A DNA stretch of 64,000 nt, taken from an uncultured Eubacteriales bacterium (lineage in GTDB: Bacteria > Bacillota > Clostridia > Peptostreptococcales > Anaerovoracaceae). The DNA is taken from NCBI GenBank assembly GCA_902786815.1, contig CADADV010000006.1:50344-114343 (forward strand), written 5' to 3'. Position numbers and translations under genes: made by a program. Below, in pieces: positions 22,325 through 61,167 of the stretch (positions within the stretch are counted from its first letter, which is position 1; each line of letters starts with the position of its first letter). The notes beneath the pieces were generated by a model that was not told the DNA's origin, did not search any database, and was given only the letters and a program-made list of their open reading frames with translations.

Positions 22325-22349
22325 ATATGAAACGCCTTTGCTTTCGCCT

Positions 22350-23192: not shown

Positions 23193-23226
23193 GATTTATG
23201 ATTCATGGCTGTGATGCTTTTGCAGC

Positions 23227-23925: not shown

Positions 23926-23959
23926 CCTTCTTCCTCGTTTCTTCCTAAACACGACAAAA

Positions 23960-24085: not shown

Positions 24086-24103
24086 CTTTTATTCTTGTTG
24101 TCT

Positions 24104-46594: not shown

Positions 46595-47632
46595 TCATCG
46601 ATATATCCCGTACTTGATCTTCACCCGTTCGAGTTTGCGGATAATCAAGTCACCGAAGAGGAAAATGAAGATGGCCGCCGTCGCTGCATGTACCGCATCG
46701 TATGGAGCACCGGTGATGTACAGGAGCCGCAGTGTGTTCAGACTGATAGGGTCTCCGCCCGGCATGATCGAGGCGTTGACCATGGCGCAAACATTCATGA
46801 TCCCGCCATAGACGATAAAGGTCACAAAGAATGTGAACAGAGCCATGGTAAGTCCATCTGCCGGAAGCCGCTTTCGCTGCAAAAGCACCCCTGCCAGAAG
46901 TCCTCCTGCGCCGAAGATGTACAGGCGCCATCCGATAAAGCCGCTGTTCTCACCTGAACCCGGCCAGATGAGCCAGCACACATAGGCCAGTGCGATGGCG
47001 AACAGGATGCAGATCACCGGTCCCATTACAACACGGAAACTTCTGGAATTCACTTTCATCAGAGGTCCCGGCAGTTTCCGGGTGCCGGCGTTGATCTTTT
47101 CTGACGCCAGCTGCCGGTACTTTCGCAGATCCTCCGGATCGACTTTGTTGAACGCCAGTCCGGCGAGAAATCCCAGCAGCCCCCAGCAGAACATCTGCCA
47201 CGGTGTCCATGGTCCCTGCCCAATGTAGAAATTACAGACCAGTCTGGCCAGCGCACCCACCAAAAACCCCGCTTCCGGGCCCAGGGCGATGCCGGAGATG
47301 ATCACCATCGCCGTGCCTGCCTGGATCGGGACCGTCACATGAAAGAACAACTGCAGAACGACCGTCAAAGCTGCCATCATAGCGATCAGAACGATTTCCC
47401 GCGCCTTTGGTTTGCGCGCTTCGAACACCATGAAGAACGGGATCAGGGTGTAGATCACCACCAAGAGGCTGATGATCATATACATATTCTGATCCAGCAC
47501 AACAATGCCGAACACCATGGTCGCAGGAATCAGAACAAAGATCATAAAGGACGCCATCAGTGCACGCTTCCGTCGGAAGACTTCATACTGCGTGGCCTGC
47601 AGCGCGGTCCGGGAAGCACGCGGCGCTGTCAT
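46595..47632 (-). CDS. ECF-transporter S-component-like membrane protein, atypically large (about 345 aa, about 10 TM segments)
   Basis: Last gene of the ECF module. The preferred start is MTAPRA at 47632 (ATGA junction with the ATPase stop). The first roughly 6 TM segments resemble an S component, and 4 extra TM segments follow a basic loop. Confidence 0.65.
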   Translation of the reverse strand: MTAPRASRTALQATQYEVFRRKRALMASFMIFVLIPATMVFGIVVLDQNMYMIISLLVVIYTLIPFFMVFEARKPKAREIVLIAMMAALTVVLQLFFHVTVPIQAGTAMVIISGIALGPEAGFLVGALARLVCNFYIGQGPWTPWQMFCWGLLGFLAGLAFNKVDPEDLRKYRQLASEKINAGTRKLPGPLMKVNSRSFRVVMGPVICILFAIALAYVCWLIWPGSGENSGFIGWRLYIFGAGGLLAGVLLQRKRLPADGLTMALFTFFVTFIVYGGIMNVCAMVNASIMPGGDPISLNTLRLLYITGAPYDAVHAATAAIFIFLFGDLIIRKLERVKIKYGIYR

Positions 47633-49341
47633 CGGATCCTGCGGATGCATGCCGCCACCTCCTCCCAAGTGATCGCGCCGGGGAAGTATTCCCGCGCGAT
47701 CCGGTTGGCTGTCGTCGTATAGAAGTTGTTGCCCGTGAAGAAGCTCTCCGCTTCGCCTTCCGAAATAATGCCACCGTCAAAGAACATGGCGCAGCGGTCT
47801 GCGTACGCAGCGCAGAATTCAATGTCGTGGGAGACCATCAGGATGGTGATTCCCTGTGCGGCGAGATCTTTCAGGATCTCTGCCAGCGTGATCTTAAAGA
47901 AAGGATCCAACCCCTTGGTCGGCTCATCCAGAAGCAAAATCTCCGGTTCCAGCAGAAGCACTTTGCCAAGCGCCAGCCGCTGCTGCTCTCCGCCGGACAG
48001 ATCGTATGGATGGACCTGGCGGAGATGTTCGATCTGCAGCAGCTGCAGCATGGACTCTACTGCGGCTACTTTTTCCTCATCTGTTTTCTCTGCGTAGTGC
48101 AGTGCCTCCAGCAGATCGTCCTCCACCGTGATCTCTGAGAACAGAGCCTGCGGATTCTGTGGCAGCATCGCCGCCCTGCCGCTGATCTGCACCGATCCCC
48201 GCCGCGGCTTCAGGATTCCCTGCAAAACCTTCAGGAGGGTGCTTTTGCCGACGCCGTTTCCACCCAGCAGAGAGTACAATGTGCCGCGCTCCACCTGCAG
48301 GTTCAGATCCCGCAGCACATCCGGCGCGTCCTTTCTGTAACGGAACCACAGGTCCTTTGTCCGGATCGCGAGATCCGTGTCCGCTCTGCGCGGTGCAGGC
48401 GGGCGCGTTTCTGTTTTCTCTTCCCGCACTTCACGCAGGATCTGCCCGGCAGTCTGCACGTCAAGTTCTGCGGTCGCGGCTTCTTCCTTCAGCCAGAGTC
48501 TGCCCTCACGGACCGTCAGCGGACCAGCCTCGCCGGCATATGTCTCCGCTGTTTCCGGATGCTCCTCCCTGTCCGTCATGACAGTATGATAAATCTTCGT
48601 CACGGCGGGCAGTCCGTAAAACATCGGGTGCTGCAGCTGCGCGAGCTTCGCGCCGATGCTCCGCGGAGCATCACAGGAGAGCACGCCTCCATGATCCATG
48701 ACCACAACACGGTCTGCCATGGTAAACGCCTCTTCCAGGCGGTGCTCCGAAAGGATGACGGTTACACCCAGATCACGGTTGATCCTGCGCACCGTCTGCA
48801 GAAATTCCGACGCCGCGATTGGGTCCAGTTGTGAGGTGGGCTCGTCCAGCACCAAGAGCCTTGGCTGCATCACCATGACGGATGCCAGATTCAGAAGCTG
48901 CTTCTGTCCTCCGGACAATTCGCTCACATCCTTTCGGAACCAGCTCTGGATATCAAAATAACTGGCCATTTCCGCCACGCGGCGGCGGATGGTCGCATTA
49001 TCCAGGCCCAGACTCTCCAGCCCGAAGGCCAGTTCGTGCCAAACCTTATCCGTCACGATCTGGTTGTCCGGATTTTGCTGTACGAATCCGATCTCCGATG
49101 CGCTCCTGCGGTCATCCAACGACTCCACCGGTTCCCCGCAATAGAGAACCTCACCTGTCAGTTCCCCGTATGGAATGAGGTTCTTCTTCATCTGGCGCAG
49201 CAAGGTGGTTTTGCCGCAGCCGGACTTGCCGCATACCACGAGGAATTCGGATTCAGACACCGAAAAACTGACCTCCGACAAGGCCGGACGGTCCGCCAGC
49301 GGATAGGTGAAGCTTACATTGTCAAATCGGATCATTTCCAT
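47629..49341 (-). CDS. ECF transporter duplicated ATPase (EcfA1-EcfA2 fusion type)
   Basis: Two complete ABC cassettes: GKSGCGKTT/LSGGQKQ/LVLDEPTSQLD and GGNGVGKST/LSGGEQQR/LLLDEPTKGLD. Confidence 0.9.
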   Translation of the reverse strand: MEMIRFDNVSFTYPLADRPALSEVSFSVSESEFLVVCGKSGCGKTTLLRQMKKNLIPYGELTGEVLYCGEPVESLDDRRSASEIGFVQQNPDNQIVTDKVWHELAFGLESLGLDNATIRRRVAEMASYFDIQSWFRKDVSELSGGQKQLLNLASVMVMQPRLLVLDEPTSQLDPIAASEFLQTVRRINRDLGVTVILSEHRLEEAFTMADRVVVMDHGGVLSCDAPRSIGAKLAQLQHPMFYGLPAVTKIYHTVMTDREEHPETAETYAGEAGPLTVREGRLWLKEEAATAELDVQTAGQILREVREEKTETRPPAPRRADTDLAIRTKDLWFRYRKDAPDVLRDLNLQVERGTLYSLLGGNGVGKSTLLKVLQGILKPRRGSVQISGRAAMLPQNPQALFSEITVEDDLLEALHYAEKTDEEKVAAVESMLQLLQIEHLRQVHPYDLSGGEQQRLALGKVLLLEPEILLLDEPTKGLDPFFKITLAEILKDLAAQGITILMVSHDIEFCAAYADRCAMFFDGGIISEGEAESFFTGNNFYTTTANRIAREYFPGAITWEEVAACIRRIR

Positions 49342-49372
49342 CTATCTATGCTCTCCTACGATCTATGCTCTC

Positions 49373-50293
49373 CTACTGTTCTCCATTCTCCAGTCGCTCC
49401 CACCGGAGCTCCCCGGCGATGTCCATGATCAGCGGTGTTGCCGCCATCAGGATAAATGCGATCAACGTTACGGCTGTCATCATGTCGAAAGGATGCAGTT
49501 TGTAGACGGGATAGAACCAGGCTTCTGTCTTATGCAGGGCGCATCCGGCGATGCACAGCGCGCCCAGCACGCAAAGCCAGACCATCATCGCGGTATCCCG
49601 GCGCGAAAAACGGTACAGATTGAAGCTGGTACGTCCCCGCAGTCCGTATCCCCGCGCCTCCATGGAATCCGCGCTTTCGATGGAGGACTCCAAAGACCAG
49701 GAAATCAGGATCGACGCGTTCTTGCCGGCCTGCCGCAAGCGCATTTTAAGCGGCGGCTTCGTATCTTCTACTTTGCCCCGTCCCAGACACCGCTGTCCCA
49801 TGCTGATCTCGCCGTACCGGGCGCGCAGCAGCGGAATGTAGCGAAAGATCATGGACAGGGTCAGGCCCAGCACCGGCGCAGCCCGGCCGAAGAGAAAAAT
49901 CAGTTTCTCGGCGGTCATGACGCAGTTGAAGCTGGTGAACCAGATGAGGACGGAACTGAGCATGACGGCTGCCGAAATCCCGTAAATCAGAGCTTCCGCC
50001 GTGATCCGGTTGCCGTGGATAAAGCACAGAACCGTATCGCCGTCGTGGACGAACAGCACGTTGATCAGCGCCATCACCACTACGATCCAGAAGACGAACA
50101 CCAGATTCAGACGGAGAGCCGCCCTGCCTTTGAGCAAAAGAGAGTAAAACCACGACAGGATAAACGTGGCCGCAAGAAACCAGGGCGACATACTGAACAT
50201 GGTGATTCCGATCACCAGCGCGTAGTACACCAGATTGACCCATGGATGGTATTCCGCAAATTCCGTGCGCTCTCCGATTCCTTCCCTGAACAT
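49373..50293 (-). CDS. ECF transporter T component (CbiQ/EcfT family)
   Basis: A polytopic protein with the conserved ARG motifs (MEARGY, and a preceding SLESSIESA helix). The preferred start is MFREG at 50293 (TAATG junction). Confidence 0.85.
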   Translation of the reverse strand: MFREGIGERTEFAEYHPWVNLVYYALVIGITMFSMSPWFLAATFILSWFYSLLLKGRAALRLNLVFVFWIVVVMALINVLFVHDGDTVLCFIHGNRITAEALIYGISAAVMLSSVLIWFTSFNCVMTAEKLIFLFGRAAPVLGLTLSMIFRYIPLLRARYGEISMGQRCLGRGKVEDTKPPLKMRLRQAGKNASILISWSLESSIESADSMEARGYGLRGRTSFNLYRFSRRDTAMMVWLCVLGALCIAGCALHKTEAWFYPVYKLHPFDMMTAVTLIAFILMAATPLIMDIAGELRWERLENGEQ

Positions 50294-50832
50294 TATTTGC
50301 CGCTTCCCCCGCCGGCTTCGCTCTTTGTGTAATCCACTACGTAGACCCAACGGATCTGATCGCCGTCCTTCAGTTCGTATTTCGAACATCCGACATCGGG
50401 CATTTCATCATTCACATAATAGGTCCAGCCGCTCCGTTTGCCTGCGTCCATTTCATACAGATGCCCGATGCCTTCCACATACCTGGATCGGTATACGGAA
50501 TCCTCGCTGCTCTCCATCTGGATGTCCCGGTCACGGCATGTGTTGTACAGGCAGTCGTAGACCGTCTCCCCCTCCGCGAACTTGTACGGAGTCGGCGCGA
50601 GGATCACGCCGTCCGATGGAATGTAATCCCGGATGGATTCCTTCTGCAGCTGGTCCATCTGCTGCGACAGGTCGCTGCAGTCCACCGAAATGGTCACCGT
50701 CCCGGCACTGCCGCCGCCCTGTTTCACGACAAGGCCCGCGAACCCAAGCGCCGCCAGCACCACAAGCACCACGATGATGATAATCGACCGCGCTCTCTTT
50801 TTCTTTGTTTTTTTCAGAAGCTGCTGGCTCAT
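50293..50832 (-). CDS. Membrane-anchored DUF4430 (transcobalamin-like C-terminal domain) protein
   Basis: The preferred start is MSQQLLKKTKKKRARSIIIIVVLVVLAALGFAG, an N-terminal anchor. The C-terminus SGWTYYVNDEMPDVGCSKYELKDGDQIRWVYV is the DUF4430 hallmark (GW.Y.VN...Y.L.DGD.I). Confidence 0.8.
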   Translation of the reverse strand: MSQQLLKKTKKKRARSIIIIVVLVVLAALGFAGLVVKQGGGSAGTVTISVDCSDLSQQMDQLQKESIRDYIPSDGVILAPTPYKFAEGETVYDCLYNTCRDRDIQMESSEDSVYRSRYVEGIGHLYEMDAGKRSGWTYYVNDEMPDVGCSKYELKDGDQIRWVYVVDYTKSEAGGGSGK

Positions 50833-53800
50833 TTTGTCTTTACCTTCCTGACGACAGGCTCTCCCCAATAGGTCTTTCCGCTGACCACTTTATAAGGCGT
50901 GACCTGAACATAATACAGTTTTTTCTTCTTCAGTTTCTTGATAGTATAGGTTATCTTTTTTGTCTTCACCGTCTTCGATGACGACAGATTCTTCTTCAGG
51001 CTGTACTTGATCCGGTATCCGGTCGCCGCCTTGATCTTCTTGACCGAAACAGCGATGGACTTTTTCTTTCCTTTCAGTTTCGGTGCTGTCTTCGAGATTA
51101 TGCAGAAGGAGGATGCGCTGTATGTCCCTTGTCCGCCTGCATTGACGGCGCAGACCTTCACCTCATAGCTGCCGTTTGCCGCAAGACCCGTGATCTTACG
51201 GGATGTGCTCTTGGACGTCAGATACTTCCAGGCGCCGCCCGCCTTTCGGTAAGCGATGCGGTAGGAACTTGCCCTGGCTGCTTTCTTGTATTTGACTGTG
51301 ATCGTCCTGGCAGACGCACTGACGGACGCAGTCTGGCCGGTGACCTTCGCCGGTTTCGCAGGTTTCGGCGGCTCCGGCTGCGGCTGCGGCATAGCGCAGA
51401 CCTTCACCGGCAGCAGGAGTTCCATGCTCCTGCCCCGGGCGTCGATGCCATCCGGCAGGACCGCCTCGCCGCAGATCACAAACTGCTGCTCTTTCTGATC
51501 GACCGGATCATACGCATAGCCGCCTTCCGTTTCCCAGACGATTTCCGTCGTTATCTCAGCTTCGCCGGTTTCCTCTGCGTACGCCTCGTTCATTTTCAGA
51601 TGTGCCTGCACGGACGACAGCATCTCCGTGACCGCATCGTATCCGGTTCCGTTCGGCAGCTCGCTGAAAGCGGCCTGGTCCTCCGGCGCGATATAGACGC
51701 TGTCCGGATCCAGACTGACGCCCGGTGAGGATGGTTCTTCTCCTGTCAGATCCACCGTGTAGATGAAGTCCTCCGGGAAGCTCTTTGCGTAGCCTTTTCC
51801 GCAGGCGATGGCGCGGATCTTCACGGTGACCACCTGGCCCTCTTCACCGATGGAGAGCGGCTGCTCATACAAGGTGCCGCCTGTGGAAGACGGTGCCGGA
51901 AGATCCTCGTCCTCCGTTCCGGTCACGTAGCGGACCTGCGCACCGCTGCCCAGCGCCTGCAGGGCGACCCGGATCGGTTCTGTGTAAGTTCCCGGAGCCA
52001 GACTTGCCACCGGCGGGCGCAGCGTCGGATCGGCTACCTCTACGTGCACCCGCGCGCGGCGGTTCTCCTGGGGATAGGTCACCCAGATCTCTGCCTCGCC
52101 CCGCGTAGCAGCGGTTATGACGCCATAGGAGTCGACTGCCGCAACCTGCGGATCCGAACTTTCGAAGGAGCAGTTCTCCGTCACGTCCACGCCCCCGAAG
52201 GATGCCGATACGGCAGCAGTCCTGCCCTGACCGCTGGTGTACAGCGTAACCGAAGACGGTGACAGGCGGAGCGGCGTATCACCTGTTTCGATGTATTTCT
52301 CACTGCGCTGCAGTGTGACATGATAGGTTCTGGTGACTTTGCCGCTTGGCGATGTCACTTCAACATCCACCTCGGCAGTAGTTCCTCCCTTGACCCAGTA
52401 CACAGGATAATACGAGCTATTGGACGCCCTTTTGATCGTTCCGTCCTCGTTCAGACGGCTCTGTGTATTTCCAACATTATCTACAGGAATGACACGTATG
52501 GCAGCTTCCGGATCCGCCGTCTCCAGCCAGAGCCTGAGGAAGGCTTTCCCCGCATCGACCTCGCAGATCCTGCCAACATAGTCTTCGATTCCGGGATCAA
52601 ATGTCGGATCATATCCGATGCCTTTGTTGGCGGAGACCCAGTCACCGCTGTCCGCAATCTGCGCCGGAGCCGTATTGGATGCGCTGATGTACAGTCCTGC
52701 CAGATTCGCGTTGTTGGACAGGGTCGTCGTATTCAGCGTATAAGTCCTGGTATAGGTTTTCTCACCAACGATCCTGGATACGGTGATCGGTATGGCCGCT
52801 GCGTCCTCTCCTACGGAAACGGAGATCTTCGATCCGGTGTACTCCTCACCGTCCACGCGGGCCGTCATGCCATCGGGCACCTGCAGCCGCACATCTACTG
52901 CAGCGGCATCGTTCGGCGCCTGCAGACTGTAGTTCAGGATCCCCGGTTCAAACGGATAATCCCATACCAGTTCCTGCTGCCCGTACTTCACGCTGATGTC
53001 ATTCAGATAGGCTTTATTAAGAGCGACCGCCATCAGGTGACCGCTGTCGTTTTTGTAGTAGAAGGTTCCTTCCCGGTCGCAGCAGAGCGGGCTGATGCAG
53101 TACTGCTGCATGGATAATTCCGGGCGGAACAGGAGCTGCGGAGACGCATGACTTTCTGCGGTCGCCTCCGGGCTGTCCTCCAGACAGTAGATCCCGCCGG
53201 GAAATGCGTTGAATGTAAAGTACAGACGGACCTTGCCATCCGTTTTCTCTGTCGCCGTCGAAAGCAGCGGCGATGCCTGCGGATAACCGGAGATCGGGAC
53301 CGTATAGATCAGCGAACGGTCGGAAAGTGTGTCGTCATCCCGGATCACCGCGAACATGTGGCCGCCGTCCGCACTGAACTGGCCGCCGGCGCCCGCCGCG
53401 CCGACGTAGATCCTGCCCTTATATACGACCGGCGTGGAGGTCATCATCGCGTCCACCTTGTCTGTGGTGCTTTTGCCTCTTACCTGTAATTGGATATAGG
53501 ATGTATTGCGGAACTTTCCGTCCGTTCCGAAGTCCGCCTTATACAGCCGTCCGCCTTTGGATACGAAATAGATGTGTCCGTTGTCGTACACTACCGTGCT
53601 GCGGATGTCTCCCTTGACGCCCGTGATCCGGTCCACGACCTCACCGGTCCGGCGGTCGAAGCTGTAGACAATGGCAGTCTCTGTATATCCCCCGGCTTCC
53701 GAGAAGAGGTTGTCGGTACCGTCATCGGATCCGACAACGACGTAGTTCTCATCAACGTAACTTCCGGCCCAGTAGAAACCGTGCGGCGTTTCGCCGTGCT

Positions 53801-54443
53801 CCGACGGAACGTACTTCCATTTGGCTTCACCGGTCGCTGCGTCCAGACAGAAGAAAACGCCATCCTTTGTTTCGGTCTCCCAGATCCCGGTGTAGACGCA
53901 GCCGTCCTGATAGCTGATGGGCGACAGCGTCTGACTGTACCGGTATTCATCGGAGATCCACTTGGAGCGGAGCGTGTCCGCATCCAGGCACTGCACGCGG
54001 CCTTTCATGATCGGAACAAAGAGCTGGTCGTTGTCCGCATCGTAAGTGATCGGGTTCATGCCGTATCCTACGTTCAGTTTCAGTTCTTCACTTTCCTTCA
54101 CGATCTCTCCGGTATTCTTGTTGATCCGGTACACGTGGGTGCTGGACGCAGTGTACAGATACCCGTCGATGATGAGCGGCGGTGTGAAAGAAGTGGTATA
54201 TCCAGAAACCATCTTACGGCTCCACTTCAGCGCAGTCTCCTCATAGACCGACGGCGTTTCGATCTCACCGATGACGCCGTTGTTCGTCGGACTGTTCTGG
54301 TACTGTCCCCACTCCACATCGCGCTCTGTCGCATAACTGTCCGATGCAAAAGCAATCCAGGCCATGCCCAGAAACAGAAGCAGTACCACCCCTGCTTTGA
54401 AATAGAATCTGTTTTGTCTCGCGTGTTCCCTCATGTTGCTCAT
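50829..54443 (-). CDS. 1204-aa secreted multidomain protein. From N- to C-terminus: PQQ/BamB-like beta-propeller, two cadherin-like beta-sandwiches, Big_2, an Fn3-associated module, and two highly basic FN3/Ig-like modules.
   Basis: The signal peptide is FYFKAGVVLLLFLGMAWIAFASDSYA. Repeated W/Y-rich blades span roughly aa 40 to 480. LNDISVKYGQQELVWDYPFEPGILNYSL and LAGLYISAS... are cadherin-like. LRLSPSSVTLYTSGQGRTAAV...AEIWVTY is Big_2-like. The C-terminus is KK-rich. No LPXTG motif and no C-terminal TM segment. The start may be the ATG at 54434. Confidence 0.8.
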   Translation of the reverse strand: MSNMREHARQNRFYFKAGVVLLLFLGMAWIAFASDSYATERDVEWGQYQNSPTNNGVIGEIETPSVYEETALKWSRKMVSGYTTSFTPPLIIDGYLYTASSTHVYRINKNTGEIVKESEELKLNVGYGMNPITYDADNDQLFVPIMKGRVQCLDADTLRSKWISDEYRYSQTLSPISYQDGCVYTGIWETETKDGVFFCLDAATGEAKWKYVPSEHGETPHGFYWAGSYVDENYVVVGSDDGTDNLFSEAGGYTETAIVYSFDRRTGEVVDRITGVKGDIRSTVVYDNGHIYFVSKGGRLYKADFGTDGKFRNTSYIQLQVRGKSTTDKVDAMMTSTPVVYKGRIYVGAAGAGGQFSADGGHMFAVIRDDDTLSDRSLIYTVPISGYPQASPLLSTATEKTDGKVRLYFTFNAFPGGIYCLEDSPEATAESHASPQLLFRPELSMQQYCISPLCCDREGTFYYKNDSGHLMAVALNKAYLNDISVKYGQQELVWDYPFEPGILNYSLQAPNDAAAVDVRLQVPDGMTARVDGEEYTGSKISVSVGEDAAAIPITVSRIVGEKTYTRTYTLNTTTLSNNANLAGLYISASNTAPAQIADSGDWVSANKGIGYDPTFDPGIEDYVGRICEVDAGKAFLRLWLETADPEAAIRVIPVDNVGNTQSRLNEDGTIKRASNSSYYPVYWVKGGTTAEVDVEVTSPSGKVTRTYHVTLQRSEKYIETGDTPLRLSPSSVTLYTSGQGRTAAVSASFGGVDVTENCSFESSDPQVAAVDSYGVITAATRGEAEIWVTYPQENRRARVHVEVADPTLRPPVASLAPGTYTEPIRVALQALGSGAQVRYVTGTEDEDLPAPSSTGGTLYEQPLSIGEEGQVVTVKIRAIACGKGYAKSFPEDFIYTVDLTGEEPSSPGVSLDPDSVYIAPEDQAAFSELPNGTGYDAVTEMLSSVQAHLKMNEAYAEETGEAEITTEIVWETEGGYAYDPVDQKEQQFVICGEAVLPDGIDARGRSMELLLPVKVCAMPQPQPEPPKPAKPAKVTGQTASVSASARTITVKYKKAARASSYRIAYRKAGGAWKYLTSKSTSRKITGLAANGSYEVKVCAVNAGGQGTYSASSFCIISKTAPKLKGKKKSIAVSVKKIKAATGYRIKYSLKKNLSSSKTVKTKKITYTIKKLKKKKLYYVQVTPYKVVSGKTYWGEPVVRKVKTK

Positions 54444-54467
54444 CTCCGCTTACATTCTTTGTCTTTA

Positions 54468-55685
54468 TCAGTAGACCCCGTCCGCCAAGGAAAAAATCAG
54501 GTTCAGTTCGTCGCCGTCCTCCAGCTTATAGGATCCCAGTCCACGTTCCGGGAAGGTTCCGTTCACGCTGTAGATCCATCCGGAGGAGTCATAGAAATCA
54601 TGTTCTTTCAACTTGTTCGGATCCTGGTCTGCCGGATCTTTCTCGGTCTTTCGCAGTTCCTCCATGGTCGTCCGGACCTCGTCGGTGATATAGGCCCCCT
54701 GTGCGATGCCGCTGCGGCTGATTCCTGACAGATATCCGCCGCGGAAAGTTGGATCGATCCCTGCCTGGGAAAGAGCCGTCTCCAGTACATCCTTGGCCGT
54801 ATCCCCGCGGGTGATCTCAATGGTCCCCTCATAGAAGGCTCCCAGATTCAGAATCTCCGCACTGACAGAAACGTAGACTTCCCCGGTGACCTCCGCCGCG
54901 GCAGAAGTGTTTCCTGTGAAGTTCACTGTCTTTGTTTTATCATGGCCTTCCCGGTCCACTGCAGTGACGGCGATGGTGTTCTTTCCGTCTTTGAGGGCGG
55001 TCCTGAACCAGGTCTTCGACCCGTCCGCGCCTTCGCTGGAAAGGGGCTCGCCATTACAGCTGACCATAAAACTGCCGTCGCTTTCGGAGAACACGGGGAT
55101 GTTCCTGCCTTTGTAATCTGTGACGGTCACCGAAAAGTCCAGCCGGGTCCCATTGACCACTTCCCCGCCGGCAACGCTGATTTTGATCGTGGGCTCCATC
55201 GCCCGCTCTTCCTCTGACTTTGTGGGGTCTGTGGGATCGGTGGGATCTTCTGTCTTTGAAGGTTTCGTCGGCTCTTCCTTTGTCGGGTCAGTAGGCTCCG
55301 TTCTTTTATCTGGTTTCTTTTTGCCGCTATCCGGTTTCTTCTTGTTGCCGGACCCCGGGTTCGCGGGCTTCACGCTGCCGGGACGGATCCGCTTTGGTGC
55401 AGTTTTCTGATCCTTCTGTGTTTCCTGCTTTTGCTTGAGTTTTTCTTCCCGCTGCTTTTCCTGCTGTTTGTGGATCTTCTCCTGCTGTTTGTCCAGCTTG
55501 TATCCTTTGCCATCCAGATAGACCTGCGAACGTTCCACATTCATCTGCGCCGCCTGGACCTGGGGCACATACTCTTCCTGACCATTGAGAATGACCGCCA
55601 GAGCGCACACGATAAGGAGGGTCATTGCTGCCGCAGCGACCAGAAAAATCCGTCTCCTGTTTGTGCGCCCTTTGTTCTTTCTCAA
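54468..55685 (-). CDS. Membrane-anchored protein with a charged linker, an Ig-like domain and a C-terminal DUF4430 domain
   Basis: The N-terminal anchor is IFLVAAAAMTLLIVCALAVIL. A KQQEK / PTDPTK low-complexity region follows. The C-terminus is SSGWIYSVNGTFPERGLGSYKLEDGDELNLIFS. Confidence 0.8.
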   Translation of the reverse strand: MRKNKGRTNRRRIFLVAAAAMTLLIVCALAVILNGQEEYVPQVQAAQMNVERSQVYLDGKGYKLDKQQEKIHKQQEKQREEKLKQKQETQKDQKTAPKRIRPGSVKPANPGSGNKKKPDSGKKKPDKRTEPTDPTKEEPTKPSKTEDPTDPTDPTKSEEERAMEPTIKISVAGGEVVNGTRLDFSVTVTDYKGRNIPVFSESDGSFMVSCNGEPLSSEGADGSKTWFRTALKDGKNTIAVTAVDREGHDKTKTVNFTGNTSAAAEVTGEVYVSVSAEILNLGAFYEGTIEITRGDTAKDVLETALSQAGIDPTFRGGYLSGISRSGIAQGAYITDEVRTTMEELRKTEKDPADQDPNKLKEHDFYDSSGWIYSVNGTFPERGLGSYKLEDGDELNLIFSLADGVY

Positions 55686-56662
55686 AACAGTTTCTCTCCC
55701 TGCGCCGCCAGCAGCGCACTGTCAATAGCACAGAGCGCCTGCTCTGTGGCCATCACATCCATTTCATCTCCATGCAGATGGGAGAACCCATCTGCGCATC
55801 TGTACAGCATCAACCCATCAAGAAGGGTGCTGCCCTTCGCAAAATCCTCCGCTTTCGCGGGATCCTCTCCGAGTGCCGCTACTGCCATGACCACCTGGGA
55901 GGTGGATTCGCTGTTGCCGTAGTCTCCGCCCGGATGCTGCTGGGTGGCAAGCCACCCCTTTGCGGCTGCCAGCGCATCTGCGATCTGCTGATTTTCCCCT
56001 GCAAAGGGCGCCAGGGCCTGCATGGCCATGGCTGTGATATCCACATCCGCAGTCTGTCCGTCATAAGTGATGCTGCCGTCCTCCAGCTGCATTCCGAGGA
56101 TATCTTCGATATATGTTTCCCGGGCTTTCAGTTCTCTCCCGCAGCAGGCCGCTGCGTTCAGCGCCCAGATCTCGGCGTTGATTCCCTGCGCTTTTACAGT
56201 TTCCGTATCCTCCTGCTGCGCCAGAAGATCGAAGCCTTCCACATCCTGCGGATCGCCGCCGATCATCTGCAGGGCGATGGCTGCTTTTGCATTATCTGTA
56301 GGCCGATCCGGATCCAGCACGCCGTCTGCCCGCTTCACCGCGAGACGCAAGGATTCTTCGTACTGCATGAACAGAGACTGCGCCTCTGCTTCCTTCCCCA
56401 TGGAAGACCCGGCGATGCCGATGATGCTCCATTCATTACCTGGTCCGACCTCTTCTCCTGAAAGCAGCCGGATCAGCTGGACTGCGGTTTCCTTTTCGAC
56501 CTGCGCCAGATCTGCAGTCTGCGCTGCCGCAGCCTGCTCCGTATTCCCGGATGCAGGATCAGGACTGTCTGTACTGTCATTTCCTCCGCAGCCTGCCAAA
56601 AGCAGCAGCAATACGCTCAGGCAGAGTGCCGCGATCCAGTTTTTCGTTTGCTTTCTTTTCAT
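55682..56662 (-). CDS. Lipoprotein with a prenyltransferase/terpene-cyclase-like alpha/alpha-toroid domain
   Basis: The preferred start is MKRKQTKNWIAALCLSVLLLLLAGCGG (lipobox) at 56662. Periodic helical-hairpin repeats carry W/G-rich turns (EWSIIGIA, NAEIWALNA, DITAMAMQAL, TSQVVMAVAAL, MATEQALCAI). Confidence 0.72.
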   Translation of the reverse strand: MKRKQTKNWIAALCLSVLLLLLAGCGGNDSTDSPDPASGNTEQAAAAQTADLAQVEKETAVQLIRLLSGEEVGPGNEWSIIGIAGSSMGKEAEAQSLFMQYEESLRLAVKRADGVLDPDRPTDNAKAAIALQMIGGDPQDVEGFDLLAQQEDTETVKAQGINAEIWALNAAACCGRELKARETYIEDILGMQLEDGSITYDGQTADVDITAMAMQALAPFAGENQQIADALAAAKGWLATQQHPGGDYGNSESTSQVVMAVAALGEDPAKAEDFAKGSTLLDGLMLYRCADGFSHLHGDEMDVMATEQALCAIDSALLAAQGEKLF

Positions 56663-58769
56663 ACATCCCCCGTTCATATTCTTTCCAGATGGCGGTACGT
56701 TCGTCCTCCTCGACCGGAAGCTCACTGAACGCCGCCCGTTCACCGATCTCAACTGTCTCCGCAGACAATTGCAGGCCTTCATCCATCATGCTTCCATAGA
56801 TGGCGCAGATCCCCTTTCGTATGTCCGGATCGGCGAACGATCTCATCCGCCTGCGATAGGCGATCCGGCGCCGGATCACTTTCTGCAGGATCCACACAAG
56901 TAGCAGGAGAAGCAGAATCAGTCCTGCTGTGAGCAGGAAGCGCAATAGCTTTTTCCCGTAATTAACGGCCGGTTCCTCCTCTTCTTCCATCGGAGGAATG
57001 TCCAGCTGCTGGTCGTTCTGTTTCTTATAATTCACCGACTCCAGGCCTCGTGTGAGATCTGCCTGCGGCATGACATCCTGCCATCCCGGCGTAAACTCCA
57101 TCGGCACCCATCCGAAGCCGTCGACATAGATTTCCGTCCACGCGTGGGCGTGGCTGAAGCCGATATCGTAAGGCTGTCCTGCTTTTGCAGCTGCGGCATC
57201 GGCCGGCGTGAAGAGATAGCCTTCCACATAGCGGGCCGGAATGCCGTAGTACCGCATCAGCATTGTCGCCAGAGAAGCATAGTGCGCGTCGCAGCCTTTG
57301 CCTGAAATCAGGAAGCGCTCGATGGGATCCTCCCCCTTCTTCGGAGATTTGAACTTCTCCGTATAGATGAAGTTTCCATCCAGATAATCCCGGACTGCAG
57401 TAATGGCCCGCCTGTAATCCGCATGGTCGCGTGTCAGATCTCCGGGATCGCCCATGGCCATGTACAGCGTGCCCGCAAGCTCCTCGGGTACGTCGGTATA
57501 ATGTTCATAACACCACACGTTGTAGTGGCTCTCACTTGTATAATAGTTCTGCAGCTGCGGACTGCTGTCCGTGCTGTAAAGTCTCCCTACCCAGTCCGTC
57601 CAGCTGCCTGTCATATCCGGCAGAGCCTGATAGACCGCAGTCTTTGTCCCGAACAGTTTGTCTGTTCTGAGAAATCCACCGGCGTAATTCTGCGCGCCCT
57701 GCGGAATCGCTTCACTCGTCCCCGTTATTTCGTAAGGTGTGTAGATGCAGGAACAGTCGGCTTTTTTCGTCTGTACGGTGCACGCGAACGGCTCACCCGC
57801 CTGCTGCGGGTCGGATAACTGCGCCGTCAGCGCGAGCTGCGACAGGCCGTCGAAGCCATTCCGGTTCAGCCAGTACTGGATATCCCGCCGGCTGTAATAG
57901 GTTTCATTGCCCAGGTCCGTCCACTGGTGACCGCGGTAGGTTTCGCCGACAAATCCGCGAAGCCAGCAGGACTGCAGCGCGCCGTTCTTCTGATCTATTG
58001 TCAAGGTCAACGCTGTCTTTGTCTTGTCTTTGCCTCCTGCACTGAGCAGCTGCAGTACCTGATCTGAACTTCCCCGCAGATCAGTCAGTGATTCTCCGGT
58101 AAGCCCTTCCAGATCTCCTTTACCCAGCGGATTCTTCCCGTAGCGCTTATCGAGCTGTTTCGTGATGGCCGTCTGGGTCTGCTTCTGCAGCGCGCTCTGG
58201 GAAAGCCCCGCCGTGTGATCGATCAGCATGCCTGCTGCAAATGTGATGATCAGCGCCGCCAGCGGGATCGCCAGCAGGAGAATGTGCCCTCCCTCTGTCT
58301 GCTGCATACAGGCAAACGCGCACACCAATGCAAATCCAAAAACCAATGCGGTCCATGCTCCGGGCGCGGCTCCGGTAAGAAGCAGCAGCCCCGTGCCGGG
58401 CAGTGCGAAAACCAGGAGCAGCCACTTGCATCCGCTGCGCAGGATCAGATACGACAGCACGCATAGCAAAAGCAACGCGATGGTCAGGAAGATTCCCTGG
58501 GGATGATAGCTTCCGTCTGCCGCTGCACCGCCTGCGAATTTACGCAGGATAATGTAGTCGGTGGTTCCCAACCGGTCTGCGATGCTGTTGCAGACACTGA
58601 GCAGTCCCTGCAGCGGTGCGCCGCTGAAAGCCCCGGCCGGACTCCACTGCAGCCCGAATGCGGAGCATCCTGCTGCGAAGGTGCTCCCGCCGAGCAGGCA
58701 TGCGCACAGGACTGCCAGGACCTGCTGACTTCCACCCTTACTCGATTGTTCCGAATACGTTAACTGCAC
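56577..58769 (-). CDS. Transglutaminase-like (papain-fold) polytopic membrane protein, TgpA-like
   Basis: About 6 N-terminal TM segments, a large extracytoplasmic region with GCDAHYASLATMLMRYYGIPARYVEGY...HAWTEIY (the Cys-His-Asp transglutaminase core), and a C-terminal TM segment. Its last 86 nt overlap the next gene. Confidence 0.85.
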   Translation of the reverse strand: MQLTYSEQSSKGGSQQVLAVLCACLLGGSTFAAGCSAFGLQWSPAGAFSGAPLQGLLSVCNSIADRLGTTDYIILRKFAGGAAADGSYHPQGIFLTIALLLLCVLSYLILRSGCKWLLLVFALPGTGLLLLTGAAPGAWTALVFGFALVCAFACMQQTEGGHILLLAIPLAALIITFAAGMLIDHTAGLSQSALQKQTQTAITKQLDKRYGKNPLGKGDLEGLTGESLTDLRGSSDQVLQLLSAGGKDKTKTALTLTIDQKNGALQSCWLRGFVGETYRGHQWTDLGNETYYSRRDIQYWLNRNGFDGLSQLALTAQLSDPQQAGEPFACTVQTKKADCSCIYTPYEITGTSEAIPQGAQNYAGGFLRTDKLFGTKTAVYQALPDMTGSWTDWVGRLYSTDSSPQLQNYYTSESHYNVWCYEHYTDVPEELAGTLYMAMGDPGDLTRDHADYRRAITAVRDYLDGNFIYTEKFKSPKKGEDPIERFLISGKGCDAHYASLATMLMRYYGIPARYVEGYLFTPADAAAAKAGQPYDIGFSHAHAWTEIYVDGFGWVPMEFTPGWQDVMPQADLTRGLESVNYKKQNDQQLDIPPMEEEEEPAVNYGKKLLRFLLTAGLILLLLLLVWILQKVIRRRIAYRRRMRSFADPDIRKGICAIYGSMMDEGLQLSAETVEIGERAAFSELPVEEDERTAIWKEYERGMYEKKANEKLDRGTLPERIAAAFGRLRRK

Positions 58770-59862
58770 CGTAACGTTCCAGCCTTTCTGTATCTCGCTC
58801 TCCCTGGGCGCTCACCAGGAAGTGGTTCGTGAAGTTCACGCCTTCCGGACTCTCCAGATACCGGATCACTGTTGAGACATCGCTTACTGCGAACCCGCAT
58901 CCCAGTACATCCGGCACGCTCGCCCAGAGTTCTTCTTCTGAACGCACCTGCCGCCGCATAAACATCTCCTCCCTGCTGTCATACCAGCCGATGCTGTGGG
59001 GAATGGATTTCTCCAGCAGCGCCGCAGACATGGAGTACATCAGTTCCACCAGTGCGCTTCGCTGTGCCGGCGGCACCTGTGCCTGCGGATCCAACAGATT
59101 ATCCAGGATCACCAGTATGTTGTTCTCTATCGGAAAGGACGGGATCTTGACCGTCACTTCGCCCAGTTTCGCCGTCAGTTTCCAGTGGATCTGTTTCAGA
59201 CTGTCGCCTTCCTGGTATTCCCGTACGCCGAACACTTCACCCGGATCGCTTCCCTTCTCATACTGGGAATACTGGTAGCTCTCCATATTGTAGGAATCCA
59301 GAAACTCCGCCGGAATCTGCGCCGGATGCAGCTGCGGCGCGAAGTAGCAGGCGGCCGTGGATGTATCCGGCCCATGCTCATCCTGCCCCGCAGTTCCGAC
59401 TTCCGCCGGCGCTGCGAACAGACGCAGCGGGTCAAGGACTGTCATCTCCGGCATCTTCAGTTCGACTTTGCCGCAGTACTGATCCGTCAGGTCAAAGTTA
59501 TAGCGCCGGTTTCCTCCCGGCGGCAGACTGAAGGACACCGGAATGCGTCTGCTTTCTCCAGTGAGAAGATTCACCGCTTCCGCCTCTCCTGTACCACAAA
59601 ATACCGGTAGTTTCCCCCGGTTTTGCAATTCCATTTTGATTGTCATGGTCTCGCCTTTGCTGACCATGTCGCCGCCTGTGAATCCTGCTGTCAGTTTCCG
59701 TCCGCTCAGGCGTGTCAGCAAATACGCCGCAACGGCGTAGATTACTGTAAACAGCAGGAGCGCGCTCACCGCTGCCTGCCCTTTGAAAAAGAACAGGATC
59801 AGCAGAACGAGTGTCCACAGGGCAAACAGAATGCGGTTTCGCCTTATCTGTGTGTTCTGCAT
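58738..59862 (-). CDS. DUF58 protein (vWA-like), the usual MoxR partner
   Basis: Two N-terminal TM segments and the DUF58 motif GVREYQEGDSLKQIHWKLTAK. Confidence 0.85.
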   Translation of the reverse strand: MQNTQIRRNRILFALWTLVLLILFFFKGQAAVSALLLFTVIYAVAAYLLTRLSGRKLTAGFTGGDMVSKGETMTIKMELQNRGKLPVFCGTGEAEAVNLLTGESRRIPVSFSLPPGGNRRYNFDLTDQYCGKVELKMPEMTVLDPLRLFAAPAEVGTAGQDEHGPDTSTAACYFAPQLHPAQIPAEFLDSYNMESYQYSQYEKGSDPGEVFGVREYQEGDSLKQIHWKLTAKLGEVTVKIPSFPIENNILVILDNLLDPQAQVPPAQRSALVELMYSMSAALLEKSIPHSIGWYDSREEMFMRRQVRSEEELWASVPDVLGCGFAVSDVSTVIRYLESPEGVNFTNHFLVSAQGERDTERLERYGAVNVFGTIE

Positions 59863-59887
59863 CCCTCCTGTTTCCTAACTGCGTTCT

Positions 59888-60823
59888 TTATTTCCTTACA
59901 TCCGGCTGCGGTACGCTCTGCAGGATTTCCCCAATGATCGTTTCCGCATCCTTGCTTTGTACATTTGCCTTCGAACTGAGCATAAGCCGATGCCTTGCGA
60001 TATCCGGAAATACGTCCTGCACGTCCTGCGGGGTGACGAATTCCCGACCGTGCAGATAAGTCCATGCCTGCGCCATGGCGGTCAGGGACAGCGCCCCGCG
60101 CGGGCTGATTCCCAGCCGGATCAGCGGATGCTGCCTTGTCCTGCGGCACAGCACCGTAACATACTGATAGATCCTGTCATGGACATAGATTTCCTTCGCC
60201 TGACTGCGCATAGCCAGAATAGCCTGGGCTCCCGCTACACGTTCGATGCTCTGCAGTGGATCCGTCCTCCTGCGGTCTTTCAGGATATCGATCTCTGCCT
60301 TCTCATCCGGATACCCGATAGACAGCTGCACCATGAACCGGTCCAGCTGCGCCTCCGGCAGCATCTGGGTTCCCGCCGTTCCGATCGGATTCTGGGTCGC
60401 AATGACAATGAATGGTTCCGGGACCTTCGTCGTCCGTCCGTCCACAGTAATGTTTCCTTCCTGCATGACTTCCAGCAGAGACGATTGGGTTTTGCTGGAT
60501 GTCCGGTTGATCTCATCAGCCAGGAGAATGTTGCACATGGCTGCGCCCGGCCGGTACATGAGTTTACCGCTTTCCTTGTTATATACCGTAAAACCTGTGA
60601 TGTCCGACGGCACGACGTCCGGCGTGAACTGCACCCGGTTGAACTTCAGATCCATGGCTTTGCTGAAGGCCAGCGCCAGGGTGGTCTTGCCCACTCCCGG
60701 AATGTCCTCCAACAGAATGTGTCCTCCGGCGATGATCACCGTAAGCACCTTGCGGATGATTTCTTCTTTTCCCAGAATGGCCTTGCCGACTTCTGTTTCA
60801 ATTCTGTGTAGCGTTGGATTCAT
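59888..60823 (-). CDS. moxR: MoxR-family AAA+ ATPase
   Basis: ILLEDIPGVGKTTLA (Walker A), ILLADEINR (Walker B), and the VIATQNP sensor region. The length is 311 aa. Confidence 0.93.
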   Translation of the reverse strand: MNPTLHRIETEVGKAILGKEEIIRKVLTVIIAGGHILLEDIPGVGKTTLALAFSKAMDLKFNRVQFTPDVVPSDITGFTVYNKESGKLMYRPGAAMCNILLADEINRTSSKTQSSLLEVMQEGNITVDGRTTKVPEPFIVIATQNPIGTAGTQMLPEAQLDRFMVQLSIGYPDEKAEIDILKDRRRTDPLQSIERVAGAQAILAMRSQAKEIYVHDRIYQYVTVLCRRTRQHPLIRLGISPRGALSLTAMAQAWTYLHGREFVTPQDVQDVFPDIARHRLMLSSKANVQSKDAETIIGEILQSVPQPDVRK

Positions 60824-60840
60824 ACTCTGTCTCCTATGTC

Positions 60841-60878
60841 AAACAAAAAGACGCAACGAAATCAATGCTCGTTACGTC
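60841..60878 (-). terminator. Intrinsic terminator; expression platform of riboswitch no. 4
   Basis: GACGTAACGA-gcattgatt-TCGTTGCGTC (10 bp including one G-U pair) followed by TTTTTGTTT. It lies 17 nt before the moxR ATG, with the RBS AGGAGA between them. Confidence 0.7.
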
Positions 60879-60934
60879 CGATATTTTGCGCAAGCTGTGT
60901 GATGCGCAACCCAAGTCGCGCACCTGCTATTTCC

Positions 60935-61130
60935 CTATCATAGGTCTTCTGGCTCGCACGGTTGGTAAAACCTGCCGTCCATTCGCCTTCTCAAGGGATT
61001 TCCCTCAATGACTGACTTTCGTCCTGAATGGCGGCCTGCCGCGCTCACAGCACCGGTCAAATGCCCAGGATTTTCACCTGATTCCCTCATCCCTGCAGCC
61101 ATACGCCGCAAGGTCATGACAGTTTTTTTG
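60935..61130 (-). promoter_or_regulatory. Cobalamin riboswitch no. 4 (long form), leader of the moxR...ECF operon
   Basis: The minus strand reads GAGGGAATCAGGTGAAAATCCTGGGCATTTGACCGGTGCTGTGAGC ... GTCAGTCATTGAGGGAAATCCCTTGAGAAGGCG ... the B12-box-like GAGCCAGAAGACCTATG. Confidence 0.8.
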
Positions 61131-61138
61131 TCATGATT

Positions 61139-61167
61139 ATTGTACCAAATTATTGCTTGATATACAA
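61139..61167 (-). promoter_or_regulatory. Promoter candidate driving riboswitch no. 4
   Basis: TTGTAT (61167..61162), a 17-nt spacer, then TACAAT (61144..61139). Confidence 0.5.

Follow-up and report, generated by a model that had tools for sequence, protein, structure and literature searches.

Why would a ten-gene operon that starts with a cobalamin riboswitch join an energy-coupling factor (ECF) importer and transcobalamin-like surface proteins to a MoxR ATPase, a DUF58 protein and a transglutaminase-like membrane protein? The operon in question (g1 to g10) lies on the minus strand of a 64,000-nucleotide (nt) stretch of DNA, referred to here as the window, from an uncultured Eubacteriales bacterium of the Anaerovoracaceae (contig CADADV010000006.1, positions 50,344 to 114,343; assembly GCA_902786815.1). 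We found that an uptake system of the B12 regulon has recruited a MoxR-DUF58-TgpA-like module (the triad, g1 to g3) together with a giant propeller protein (g6). The core of the system, an ECF transporter with a split transcobalamin and a propeller, had already been predicted, and the placement of the triad inside a B12 regulon appears to be new. We lean towards the reading that the operon is repressed by corrinoids and builds a Gram-positive corrinoid capture-and-import apparatus, as had been proposed from the sequence alone; the riboswitch, the protein domains, the match of the S-component to CbrT, the toroid fold of g4 and the conserved gene neighbourhood all support it.

The region upstream of g1 (moxR) contains a match to the full length of the Rfam cobalamin riboswitch model (RF00174; 56.5 bits against a gathering score of 31.5, E = 2.4e-11, model positions 1 to 189 of 189). 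The sequence-only reading had placed an aptamer at 60935-61105 and had suggested a covariance search of the minus strand; this search found the aptamer above threshold, with slightly wider bounds than those given (Table 1). The hairpin and T-tract that had been noted between the aptamer and moxR are also borne out. The terminator scan found a hairpin of 12 pairs (60879-60849; 10 bp had been counted before) followed by the T-tract TTTTTGTTT, and the same hairpin is the minimum free energy (MFE) structure of the expression platform (60838-60945, z = -3.1). It lies 47 nt past the aptamer and 18 nt before the moxR start codon, with a GGAG ribosome-binding site and the moxR ATG downstream. From the way such elements work, the hairpin would act as a transcriptional OFF switch, and the operon is very probably regulated in response to B12.

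A putative sigma-A promoter ends 7 nt upstream of the aptamer start. It consists of TTGTAT (61167-61162), a 17-nt spacer and TACAAT (61144-61139) with a TGn extended -10, in the sequence and at the position claimed for it earlier, and it is its position that makes it plausible. By consensus, however, it is weak: the -35 hexamer fits at only 3 of 6 positions, a generic promoter scan of the region did not call it, and promoter-like sites in the region were no commoner than in shuffled sequences (9 found, 10.0 expected).

Downstream of these elements, ten minus-strand open reading frames (ORFs) run from 60823 down to 46595, and the ORF list confirms their tight packing. With sensible starts assumed, the genes are joined by gaps of 24-31 nt or by overlaps. 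Three of four overlap motifs claimed previously are exact (ATGA at 50829-50832 for g6/g7 and at 47629-47632 for g9/g10, and TAATG at 50291-50295 for g7/g8), but the fourth, at 55682-55685, reads TTGA and not ATGA, as g5 starts with TTG. Furthermore, the start of g4 lies inside the 3' end of g3. No internal terminator with both a strong stem and a good T-tract was found in a terminator scan of the operon, in agreement with the earlier view, and g1 to g10 are presumably read as a single transcript. The 3' boundary is formed by a convergent hicA/hicB toxin-antitoxin pair (45988-46158 and 46174-46581, both on the plus strand), with hicB ending 13 nt from the g10 stop. There is no terminator between hicB and g10, and transcripts that run past the end of the operon would therefore be antisense to hicAB. 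A strain that is 98% identical (locus L093) also has a HicA gene downstream of g10, past two small unannotated ORFs.

The features of the operon region are collected in Table 1. All the domains that had been named from the sequence were recovered with Pfam and NCBIfam models, the DUF58 domain of g2 just under its cut-off.

Table 1. Features of the operon and its upstream region (window coordinates; aa, amino acids).
Feature	Coordinates	Strand	Description	Basis
Promoter	61139..61167	-	Putative sigma-A promoter	Read off sequence
Riboswitch	60926..61132	-	Cobalamin riboswitch aptamer, RF00174	Rfam covariance model
Terminator	60841..60879	-	Intrinsic terminator, expression platform	Terminator scan and MFE fold
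g1	59888..60823	-	MoxR-type AAA+ ATPase, 311 aa, cytoplasmic	AAA_3
g2	58738..59862	-	DUF58-family protein, 374 aa	PF01882 and BLASTP
g3	56577..58769	-	Polytopic TgpA-like membrane protein, 730 aa	Transglut_core
g4	55682..56662	-	Alpha/alpha-toroid lipoprotein, 326 aa from MKRKQTK	AlphaFold2 model and lipobox LLAGC
g5	54468..55685	-	Membrane-anchored long DUF4430 protein, 405 aa, TTG start	DUF4430
g6	50829..54443	-	Secreted giant, 1204 aa	Pfam PQQ_2, Cadherin-like, fn3
g7	50293..50832	-	Membrane-anchored short DUF4430 protein, 179 aa	DUF4430
g8	49373..50293	-	EcfT, 306 aa	CbiQ, 28.8 bits (cut-off 25)
g9	47629..49341	-	Fused EcfA-EcfA' ATPase, 570 aa	Two ABC_tran domains
g10	46595..47632	-	Enlarged CbrT-like S-component, 345 aa	ECF-ribofla_trS
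u1	61223-62833	-	Upstream surface protein, 536 aa	5' of operon riboswitch
u2	62855-63961	-	Upstream surface protein, 368 aa	5' of operon riboswitch

The first three genes encode, in this order, an AAA_3 MoxR protein, a DUF58 protein and a TgpA-like membrane protein with a Transglut_core domain. The g1 protein matches AAA_3 with 186 bits (2.5e-55) and AAA_lid_2 (6.7e-23), and its Walker A (GVGKT) and Walker B (LLADE) motifs are intact. The g2 protein scores 23.0 bits with PF01882, against a cut-off of 23.4, and is homologous from end to end (BLASTP, 8e-26) to a protein that PF01882 matches confidently; a transmembrane (TM) scan gives it two N-terminal TM helices and a cytoplasmic body. The g3 protein matches Transglut_core with 77.8 bits (9e-22), and its homologues carry TgpA_N. 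From TM scans and positive-inside residues, it is built of an N-terminal TM bundle, an ectodomain of ~420 aa, a last TM helix and a basic cytoplasmic tail. A weaker match of g1 to bpMoxR (34 bits) was considered as a sign of an anti-phage system or of a ternary MoxR-vWA-beta-propeller conflict system, in which the propeller effector is intracellular, and rejected, given the AAA_3 score of 186 bits and the secretion of the propeller protein; PADLOC found no defence-system match for g1, g2, g3 or g6.

Is the transglutaminase-like protein an enzyme? We aligned 20 context-matched orthologues of g3. The column of the catalytic Cys (GKGC in the window protein) holds Cys in 5 of the 20 and Ser, Val, His, Tyr, Arg or Thr in the other 15. 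The His (HAW) and an acidic residue are kept across the 20 orthologues, the acidic residue being Glu in place of the canonical Asp. Thus, the family has no conserved Cys-His-Asp catalytic triad, and the window protein itself has Cys-His-Glu. Since the Cys is lost in 15 of 20 orthologues, any function that the clade conserves cannot need thiol catalysis. Judging from the alignment, the ectodomain is most likely a module for binding or scaffolding and need not be an enzyme, with some activity perhaps left in the lineage of the window.

Triads of MoxR, DUF58 and transglutaminase-like proteins are widespread. They include yeaC-yeaD-yebA of Bacillus subtilis, the system of the essential TgpA of Pseudomonas aeruginosa and the mycobacterial moxR1 operon. 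To our knowledge, neither function nor substrate has been established for any of them. The operon described here differs from the other triads in its cobalamin riboswitch, in the overlap with the toroid gene and in the frequent loss of the Cys, and it lacks a Ser/Thr or His-kinase partner. The bifidobacterial PFNA cluster, with its five core genes pkb2 (a Ser/Thr kinase), fn3, MoxR, duf58 and tgm, resembles it in having the triad in the same order together with a surface protein that bears FN3 domains (PMC8430577). However, there is no kinase gene in the present operon, which is thus not a PFNA cluster.

The gene that overlaps g3 encodes a protein with a textbook lipoprotein signal, MKRKQTKNWIAALCLSVLLLLLAGC, and with no Pfam match. 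Its AlphaFold2 model (mean predicted local distance difference test score, pLDDT, 91.7) is an alpha/alpha toroid, so that the alpha6/alpha6-type fold expected for g4 was recovered on modelling. Foldseek matched this model to class II terpene cyclases (2.6e-4) and to transcobalamin (2bb6_A, 7.4e-4, TM-score 0.54), with the bovine, human and rat transcobalamins all among the best matches (7.4e-4 onward, TM-score ~0.54). The modelled fold thus appears about equally near to transcobalamin and to the terpene cyclases. Homologues of g4 carry PF00432 or PF13243; one carries PF01122, the eukaryotic cobalamin-binding protein family, and in another the toroid is fused to DUF4430 (family members P0006 and P0053). 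A near-invariant motif, D-[VAI]-D-[IM]-T-A-M, is found in the toroid family at residues ~206-212 of g4, and we used it as a pattern for the genome scan. The motif recalls the DxDDTA acid motif of squalene-hopene cyclases, minus one Asp.

The g5 and g7 proteins both carry DUF4430. In g5, a signal-anchor is followed by a linker rich in Lys, Glu, Pro and Thr, an Ig-like region and a C-terminal DUF4430 domain (35.4 bits, 1.5e-08; PF14478 cut-off 23.8), and the protein scores 82 bits with a profile of the g7 family; g7 matches PF14478 with 68.9 bits (5.4e-19). Between them, g6 encodes an 8-bladed PQQ-type beta-propeller, followed by cadherin-like, Big and FN3 domains and a lysine-rich C-terminal module. 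Residues 36-478 were modelled as an 8-bladed propeller of the PQQ/BamB type (AlphaFold2, pLDDT 93.1), with quinoprotein alcohol dehydrogenase and BamB as top Foldseek matches. Propeller and DUF4430 are also linked elsewhere: they are fused in one protein (P0088), and at locus L089 a stand-alone propeller homologue is encoded in an operon of the order propeller, EcfT, EcfAA', S-component and DUF4430.

Could g6 be a relative of BtuG, the B12-binding propeller of Bacteroides, to which it had been likened? The BtuG-BtuB system also encodes a surface propeller with a riboswitch-controlled B12 transporter, and the proposed logic, in which high-affinity capture outside the cell is followed by transfer to a transporter, is the same. 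However, the two systems differ in envelope, in anchoring, in the type of propeller and in the transporter, which is TonB-dependent in Bacteroides and of the ECF type here. We rejected homology, because g6 has no sequence match to BtuG in the PDB and BtuG is absent from its top 50 Foldseek matches, which are PQQ dehydrogenases, BamB, YxaL and tetrathionate hydrolase. The parallel with BtuG is therefore an analogy, with no specific relationship detectable in these searches.

The last three genes encode a complete transporter. In addition to CbiQ, g8 matches TIGR02454 (1e-06); g9 scores 343 bits with TIGR04520, above the cut-off of 315; and g10 scores 66.8 bits with ECF-ribofla_trS (cut-off 26.7, 3e-18), with ~8 predicted TM segments in a TM scan. 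EcfT, two EcfA domains and the S-component are thus encoded by adjacent or overlapping genes, as in group I ECF systems. Pfam and NCBIfam place g10 only in generic S-component families of the riboflavin/folate type. Its only sequence match in the PDB is 6fnp_A of ECF-CbrT (E = 2.3e-07), a chain that we take to be CbrT itself, as its length of 182 residues fits. The alignment covers residues 77-173 and a weak C-terminal stretch, with an insertion of ~130 aa between them. ECF-CbrT of Lactobacillus delbrueckii (PDB 6FNP) is therefore the only solved protein with detectable similarity to g10, and it is biochemically proven to import cobalamin and cobinamide in an ATP-dependent manner, hemin being no competitor (Santos et al. 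2018, PMC5997447). CbrT has 182 aa, shares its ECF module (group II) and works without surface binders, whereas g10 is larger, with an N-terminal extension as well as the insertion, and is encoded together with an EcfT and an EcfAA' of its own in a dedicated operon. These matches agree with the earlier proposal of a dedicated ECF transporter, and we consider it probable that this transporter imports corrinoids together with transcobalamin-like binders.

Is the association of these genes conserved? We searched one genome per GTDB species with an alignment of g4, which gave more than 567 relatives, from which 80 loci were taken; six-frame ORFs of the loci were then searched with the window proteins, and 83 non-redundant toroid loci were compared. 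The toroid relatives come nearly all from Clostridia sampled in the gut, rumen or mouth. The ten-gene order of the window is kept in loci L001 and L002 (55-67% identity) and in the 98% identical strain L093, and in most toroid loci the toroid gene adjoins a DUF4430 gene and EcfT/EcfAA', with or without the S-component. The triad adjoins the toroid in 20 of the 83 loci, and a search with g3 added two more such loci, L092 and L094. The expected conservation of the neighbourhood across Clostridia was thus observed.

The 22 further triad-toroid loci, from Blautia, Oscillospiraceae, Eubacterium nodatum and others, have at least seven gene orders. Where the window has g1 to g10 in sequence, one Blautia variant has g8 g9 g10 g4 g1 g2 g3 g5 g6 and another g7 g4 g1 g2 g3 g5 g6; the Oscillospiraceae order is g1 g2 g3 g6 g4 g7 g8 g9, and in E. 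nodatum g1 g2 g3 g4 stand alone. The linkage of triad and toroid has therefore survived repeated rearrangement. The g3/g4 overlap is also present in the gene calls of L001, L002, L004, L092 and L094, and the toroid accompanies the triad even where g6 is missing (L004, L012, L013, L045 and L061). Furthermore, a g6-like giant occurs in 15 of 20 triad loci and in none of 63 non-triad loci (Fisher p = 1e-12, which overstates the significance because the loci are phylogenetically non-independent). A g5-like long DUF4430 protein is found in 11 of the 20 and in 2 of the 63, both exceptions being truncated at a contig edge; like the other co-occurrence figures, these give a direction and not an exact probability.

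Some of the toroid loci have unusual gene structures. Many toroid homologues are domains of ORFs of 2000-2700 codons (L034 at 3035-11116, L038, L040, L044, L065 and others), and such giant ORFs directly follow a riboswitch in several loci, which suggests that giant B12-regulated surface proteins carrying their own toroid exist. At L066 (8099-11011), g3-like and g4-like sequences share one frame of 971 codons, as a read-through fusion or an in-frame overlap. We did not count it as a transglutaminase-toroid fusion, since the stop-free frame retains the lipoprotein signal of g4 (LAGC).

Riboswitch control recurs in the relatives, by Rfam as well as by an iterated nhmmer profile, which is less sensitive than Rfam. 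The profile found cobalamin-riboswitch-like elements in ~45 of 87 loci, on the coding strand upstream of the cluster with one exception, the third element (minus strand) of L079. At a stricter score, 35 of the 83 toroid loci have a riboswitch ahead of the cluster; this is a lower bound, since Rfam found elements that nhmmer caught only partially, as at L092. Among the triad loci, RF00174 scores 85.6 bits at L002, 53-91 bits at L019, L071 and L079, 39 and 40 bits at L092, and 60.5 and 51.4 bits at L094. The riboswitch is directly 5' of moxR in three lineages: that of the window, that of L092 (the 39-bit element) and that of L094 (the 60.5-bit element). At L002, L019, L071 and L079, it precedes the triad cluster. 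At L092, the first riboswitch gates a unit of MoxR, DUF58, transglutaminase-like and toroid genes, and the second gates g5-like, giant and propeller genes. Similarly, at L094, the same four genes directly follow the first riboswitch, and the second lies further downstream, past the toroid, a 360-aa protein and a PQQ/fn3 gene. The riboswitches in the window and in dozens of relatives argue for placing the family in the B12 regulon.

Three of the relatives have further features of their own. At L047 (1242-4911), three consecutive cobalamin riboswitches (99-110 bits, nhmmer) are spaced ~1 kb apart; behind each of the first two comes a short ORF that weakly resembles DUF4430, behind the third come a longer DUF4430-like ORF and, after it, a giant ORF that includes a toroid, and a fourth riboswitch precedes the ECF genes. 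At L079, two divergently oriented cobalamin riboswitches (15117-15660) face each other downstream of the triad cluster, and a NiCo (nickel/cobalt) riboswitch (20762-20839, 47 bits) is found ~5 kb further on. At L092, the class I ribonucleotide reductase genes nrdA/nrdB (3915-7552) are immediately upstream of the riboswitch-triad-toroid unit; class I ribonucleotide reductase is B12-independent.

How does this system compare with what has been described? Burroughs, Balaji, Iyer and Aravind (2007, PMC1796856) reported secreted proteins in which SLBB (DUF4430) domains are linked, by fusion or as gene neighbours, to toroids, Ig domains and a beta-propeller, in operons with CbiO/CbiQ-like genes, and predicted that these proteins scavenge B12 or its precursors. 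Neither riboswitch control nor a link to MoxR, DUF58 and transglutaminase is mentioned there, and the paper noted that carriers are usually without B12 biosynthesis, whereas the present host has a full anaerobic cbi cluster next door. In Lactobacillus sakei, a system of this kind, lsa1836-1840, was linked experimentally to heme content (bioRxiv 10.1101/864751). It resembles the present operon in combining genes for an ECF S-component, a T component and a fused A-A' ATPase in one operon, and its exported proteins Lsa1839 and Lsa1840 were modelled as the transcobalamin beta (DUF4430-type) and alpha (toroid) domains. On the other hand, the L. sakei operon is without the triad, the giant propeller protein and the long-stalk DUF4430 paralogue, and no riboswitch is mentioned for it; its authors proposed heme, whereas the riboswitch and the CbrT-like S-component here point to corrinoids. 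The idea of an ECF transporter with a split transcobalamin thus dates, as a prediction, from 2007, and the lone experimental paper argued for heme. In our full-text literature searches, no paper connected cobalamin riboswitches or B12 uptake with MoxR, DUF58 or transglutaminase-like proteins, consistent with the earlier statement that such a link was undescribed. The sole co-mention of a transglutaminase and a riboswitch was the enrichment of yebA (COG1305) of Bacillota behind c-di-GMP riboswitches.

How might the parts work together? When B12 is low, the operon would be transcribed, and when coenzyme B12 is plentiful, the riboswitch and terminator would shut off all ten genes. At the surface, g4 together with the short g7 or the long-stalked g5 may clamp a corrinoid in the manner of the alpha and beta domains of transcobalamin. 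The g6 protein, held at the surface by its lysine-rich C-terminal module, and the stalk of g5 could extend capture through the wall, and EcfT, EcfA-A' and the CbrT-like S-component would carry the corrinoid across the membrane. From the cytoplasmic side, a MoxR hexamer and the membrane-tethered, vWA-like DUF58 protein might act on the tail and TM bundle of g3, using ATP, while the g3 ectodomain, as a scaffold, would hold, assemble, position or reset the complex of g4, g5 and g6. We rate it an even chance that the triad has such an ATP-driven role in the assembly or remodelling of the capture complex. A stronger form of the idea, that the triad is a transmembrane mechano-chemical device that opens the transcobalamin-like clamp or assembles or resets it on the giant propeller scaffold, seems unlikely to us. 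If it were true, monoderms would have an energy-coupled release step analogous to TonB, and the generic function of such triads would be revealed as an inside-out, ATP-powered remodelling of surface protein complexes.

Several observations weigh against the corrinoid capture-and-import reading. The host makes its own cobamide and has btuFCD-like genes, and its need for a further uptake system is not obvious. RF00174 was found in only 7 of the 23 triad-plus-toroid loci; 14 triad loci (Blautia, the E. nodatum group and Oscillospiraceae) have no RF00174 match at the gathering score within ~10 kb, and L050 of Blautia has only a sub-threshold match of 17.4 bits. In the triad clade, B12 control thus recurs without being universal. 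Regarding the binders, the sequence profile of the toroid family matches squalene-hopene cyclases (9e-15) and no transcobalamin chain in the PDB, and an hmmsearch of the PDB with the DUF4430 profile of the g7 family also found no transcobalamin chain; the transcobalamin likeness consequently rests on Pfam/InterPro, fold and literature. Moreover, ECF genes within 10 kb are less frequent at triad loci (6 of 20) than at non-triad loci (42 of 63), a count that is biased because the fixed flank penalises long operons. This negative association fits a role of the triad separate from transport. Finally, the non-independence of the loci bears on all the Fisher p-values.

Does the triad, then, unload the clamp? 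Force from the MoxR ATPase could be passed through DUF58 and g3 to open the g4-g5/g7 clamp and release an essentially irreversibly bound corrinoid to the S-component. In favour are the conserved g3/g4 overlap and the presence of the toroid, alone among the partners, in all 22 further triad loci, although this sample, anchored on g4 or picked from g3 relatives, is not an unbiased one. The minimal unit of riboswitch, MoxR, DUF58, transglutaminase-like and toroid genes at L092, with the same four genes behind a riboswitch at L094, points the same way, as do the cytoplasmic tail, large ectodomain and dispensable Cys of g3. Pairs of AAA+ and vWA proteins also drive tetrapyrrole chemistry in CobNST and BchHID, and g1 has weak matches, far under the family cut-offs, to BchD/ChlD, BchI/ChlI and cobaltochelatase models. 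In the chelatases CobN-CobS-CobT and BchH-BchI-BchD, an AAA+ ATPase and a vWA-type partner are likewise encoded with a tetrapyrrole binder, but the operon has no CobN/BchH-like subunit and its binders lie outside the cytoplasm, leaving a resemblance in logic alone. However, MoxR systems are not known to transmit force across a membrane, and the triad tracks g5 and g6 and not the ECF genes. Most of the loci with toroid, DUF4430 and ECF genes (42 of 63) work without a triad, and unloading therefore cannot generally require one. We accordingly think an unloading triad improbable; if real, it would be the functional equivalent of TonB-driven release in Gram-negative bacteria or of the lysosomal proteolysis of transcobalamin and intrinsic factor in mammals. 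The same correlation with g6 and not with ECF genes could mean that the triad and g6, perhaps with g5, form an independent surface-protein or adhesin module like PFNA or yeaCD-yebA that is merely co-transcribed. Relatives of g3 at ~25% identity keep the MoxR-DUF58-transglutaminase order, and no toroid or ECF genes were found at the distant loci examined; some of these triads follow a hybrid His-kinase and precede a giant of 1409-1462 aa, and another lies beside a V-ATPase operon. The FN3 surface protein of the PFNA cluster and the c-di-GMP riboswitches of yebA also fit such a module. We doubt it all the same, since the toroid gene overlaps g3 and accompanies the triad without g6, the propeller family is fused to DUF4430 and encoded in ECF operons, and a B12 riboswitch is directly 5' of moxR in three lineages.

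Might the ligand be heme or another tetrapyrrole, as proposed for Lsa1836-1840? That the same parts list is tied to heme content by experiment counts against the corrinoid reading, and the window also encodes hem genes. Nevertheless, a cobalamin riboswitch gates the operon and many relatives, the only solved relative of g10 is CbrT, for which hemin is no competitor, and the neighbouring genes are for cobamide biosynthesis and not for heme uptake, which makes this ligand very unlikely. Still less probable, in our view, is an active g3, a papain-fold cysteine peptidase or transglutaminase that processes or cross-links g4, g5 and g6 at the wall or degrades the host carriers intrinsic factor and haptocorrin to liberate their B12. 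The window protein keeps a Cys, a His and an acidic residue at the Transglut_core positions, the relatives come from gut, rumen or oral samples, and mammalian B12 is released from its carriers by proteolysis; but the nucleophile is replaced in 15 of the 20 orthologues with the same gene context, and the third residue is Glu and not Asp.

If corrinoid capture and import is the function of the operon, as we favour, why does it matter? Competition for corrinoids shapes gut communities, and the capture and release of B12 by monoderm gut bacteria are far less understood than the BtuG/BtuB route of Bacteroides or the BtuBFCD route of Escherichia coli. A widespread and functionally opaque triad also gains a defined regulon and defined partner proteins, namely a toroid lipoprotein, a DUF4430 protein and a propeller giant. 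Since the triad clade occurs in cultivable hosts (Blautia and E. nodatum), the open question becomes one for direct experiments.

Upstream of the operon riboswitch lie two more genes, u1 and u2, whose products are probably associated with the uptake system. Flg_new and Cadherin matches are found in this region, and the lysine-rich C-terminal modules of u1 and u2 are 56% identical (3e-35) and more weakly similar to that of g6 (1e-07). A u1-like gene precedes moxR in L001, L002 and L008. At L002, the u1-like gene is the direct 5' neighbour of moxR and itself lies downstream of the riboswitch, and the gated unit therefore differs between relatives. Two marginal profile matches, of u1 as a cryptic SLBB protein (independent E-value 0.82) and of u2 as a toroid fragment (0.037, to the C-terminal third of the toroid family), are not claimed. 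As u2, close to the edge of the window, has no signal peptide, a truncation or a frameshift may have affected it.

The window as a whole is a cobamide island: it contains another three RF00174 elements as well as anaerobic cbi and hem genes. One element precedes an anaerobic cbi operon that runs from cbiD to cbiC, and a btuFCD-like transporter (30360-33810, minus strand; Peripla_BP_2, FecCD and an ABC ATPase) stands at the end of this riboswitch-controlled operon. As the btuFCD-like genes sit in the cbi operon, the host has at least two candidate corrinoid importers plus de novo synthesis; the RF00174 elements and the cbi operon indicate that it makes cobamides and regulates several transport systems by B12. 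A short RF00174 match (23979-24094, minus strand; 116 nt, 38 bits) precedes a cluster (15813-23952, minus strand) with genes for a tetrapyrrole methylase, an ABC-2 transporter (ATPase and permease), cbiK, a 376-aa protein without a Pfam match, a sirC-like gene, hemC, a cobA/hemD fusion and hemB. Between two riboswitch-controlled units, an 888-aa clostripain-family (Peptidase_C11) protein is encoded (24401-27067, minus strand), with no riboswitch on its strand. The strongest riboswitch of the window (110 bits; 27299-27485, plus strand) precedes a gene for a homologue of the cobalt chelatase CbiK (27540-28871, plus strand), which is followed by a gene for a second lipoprotein (28997-29833, plus strand) without a Pfam match. 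The CbiK homologue has an N-terminal extension of ~150 aa with the lipoprotein signal MMLVTGC, and an extracytoplasmic CbiK under B12 control is unusual.

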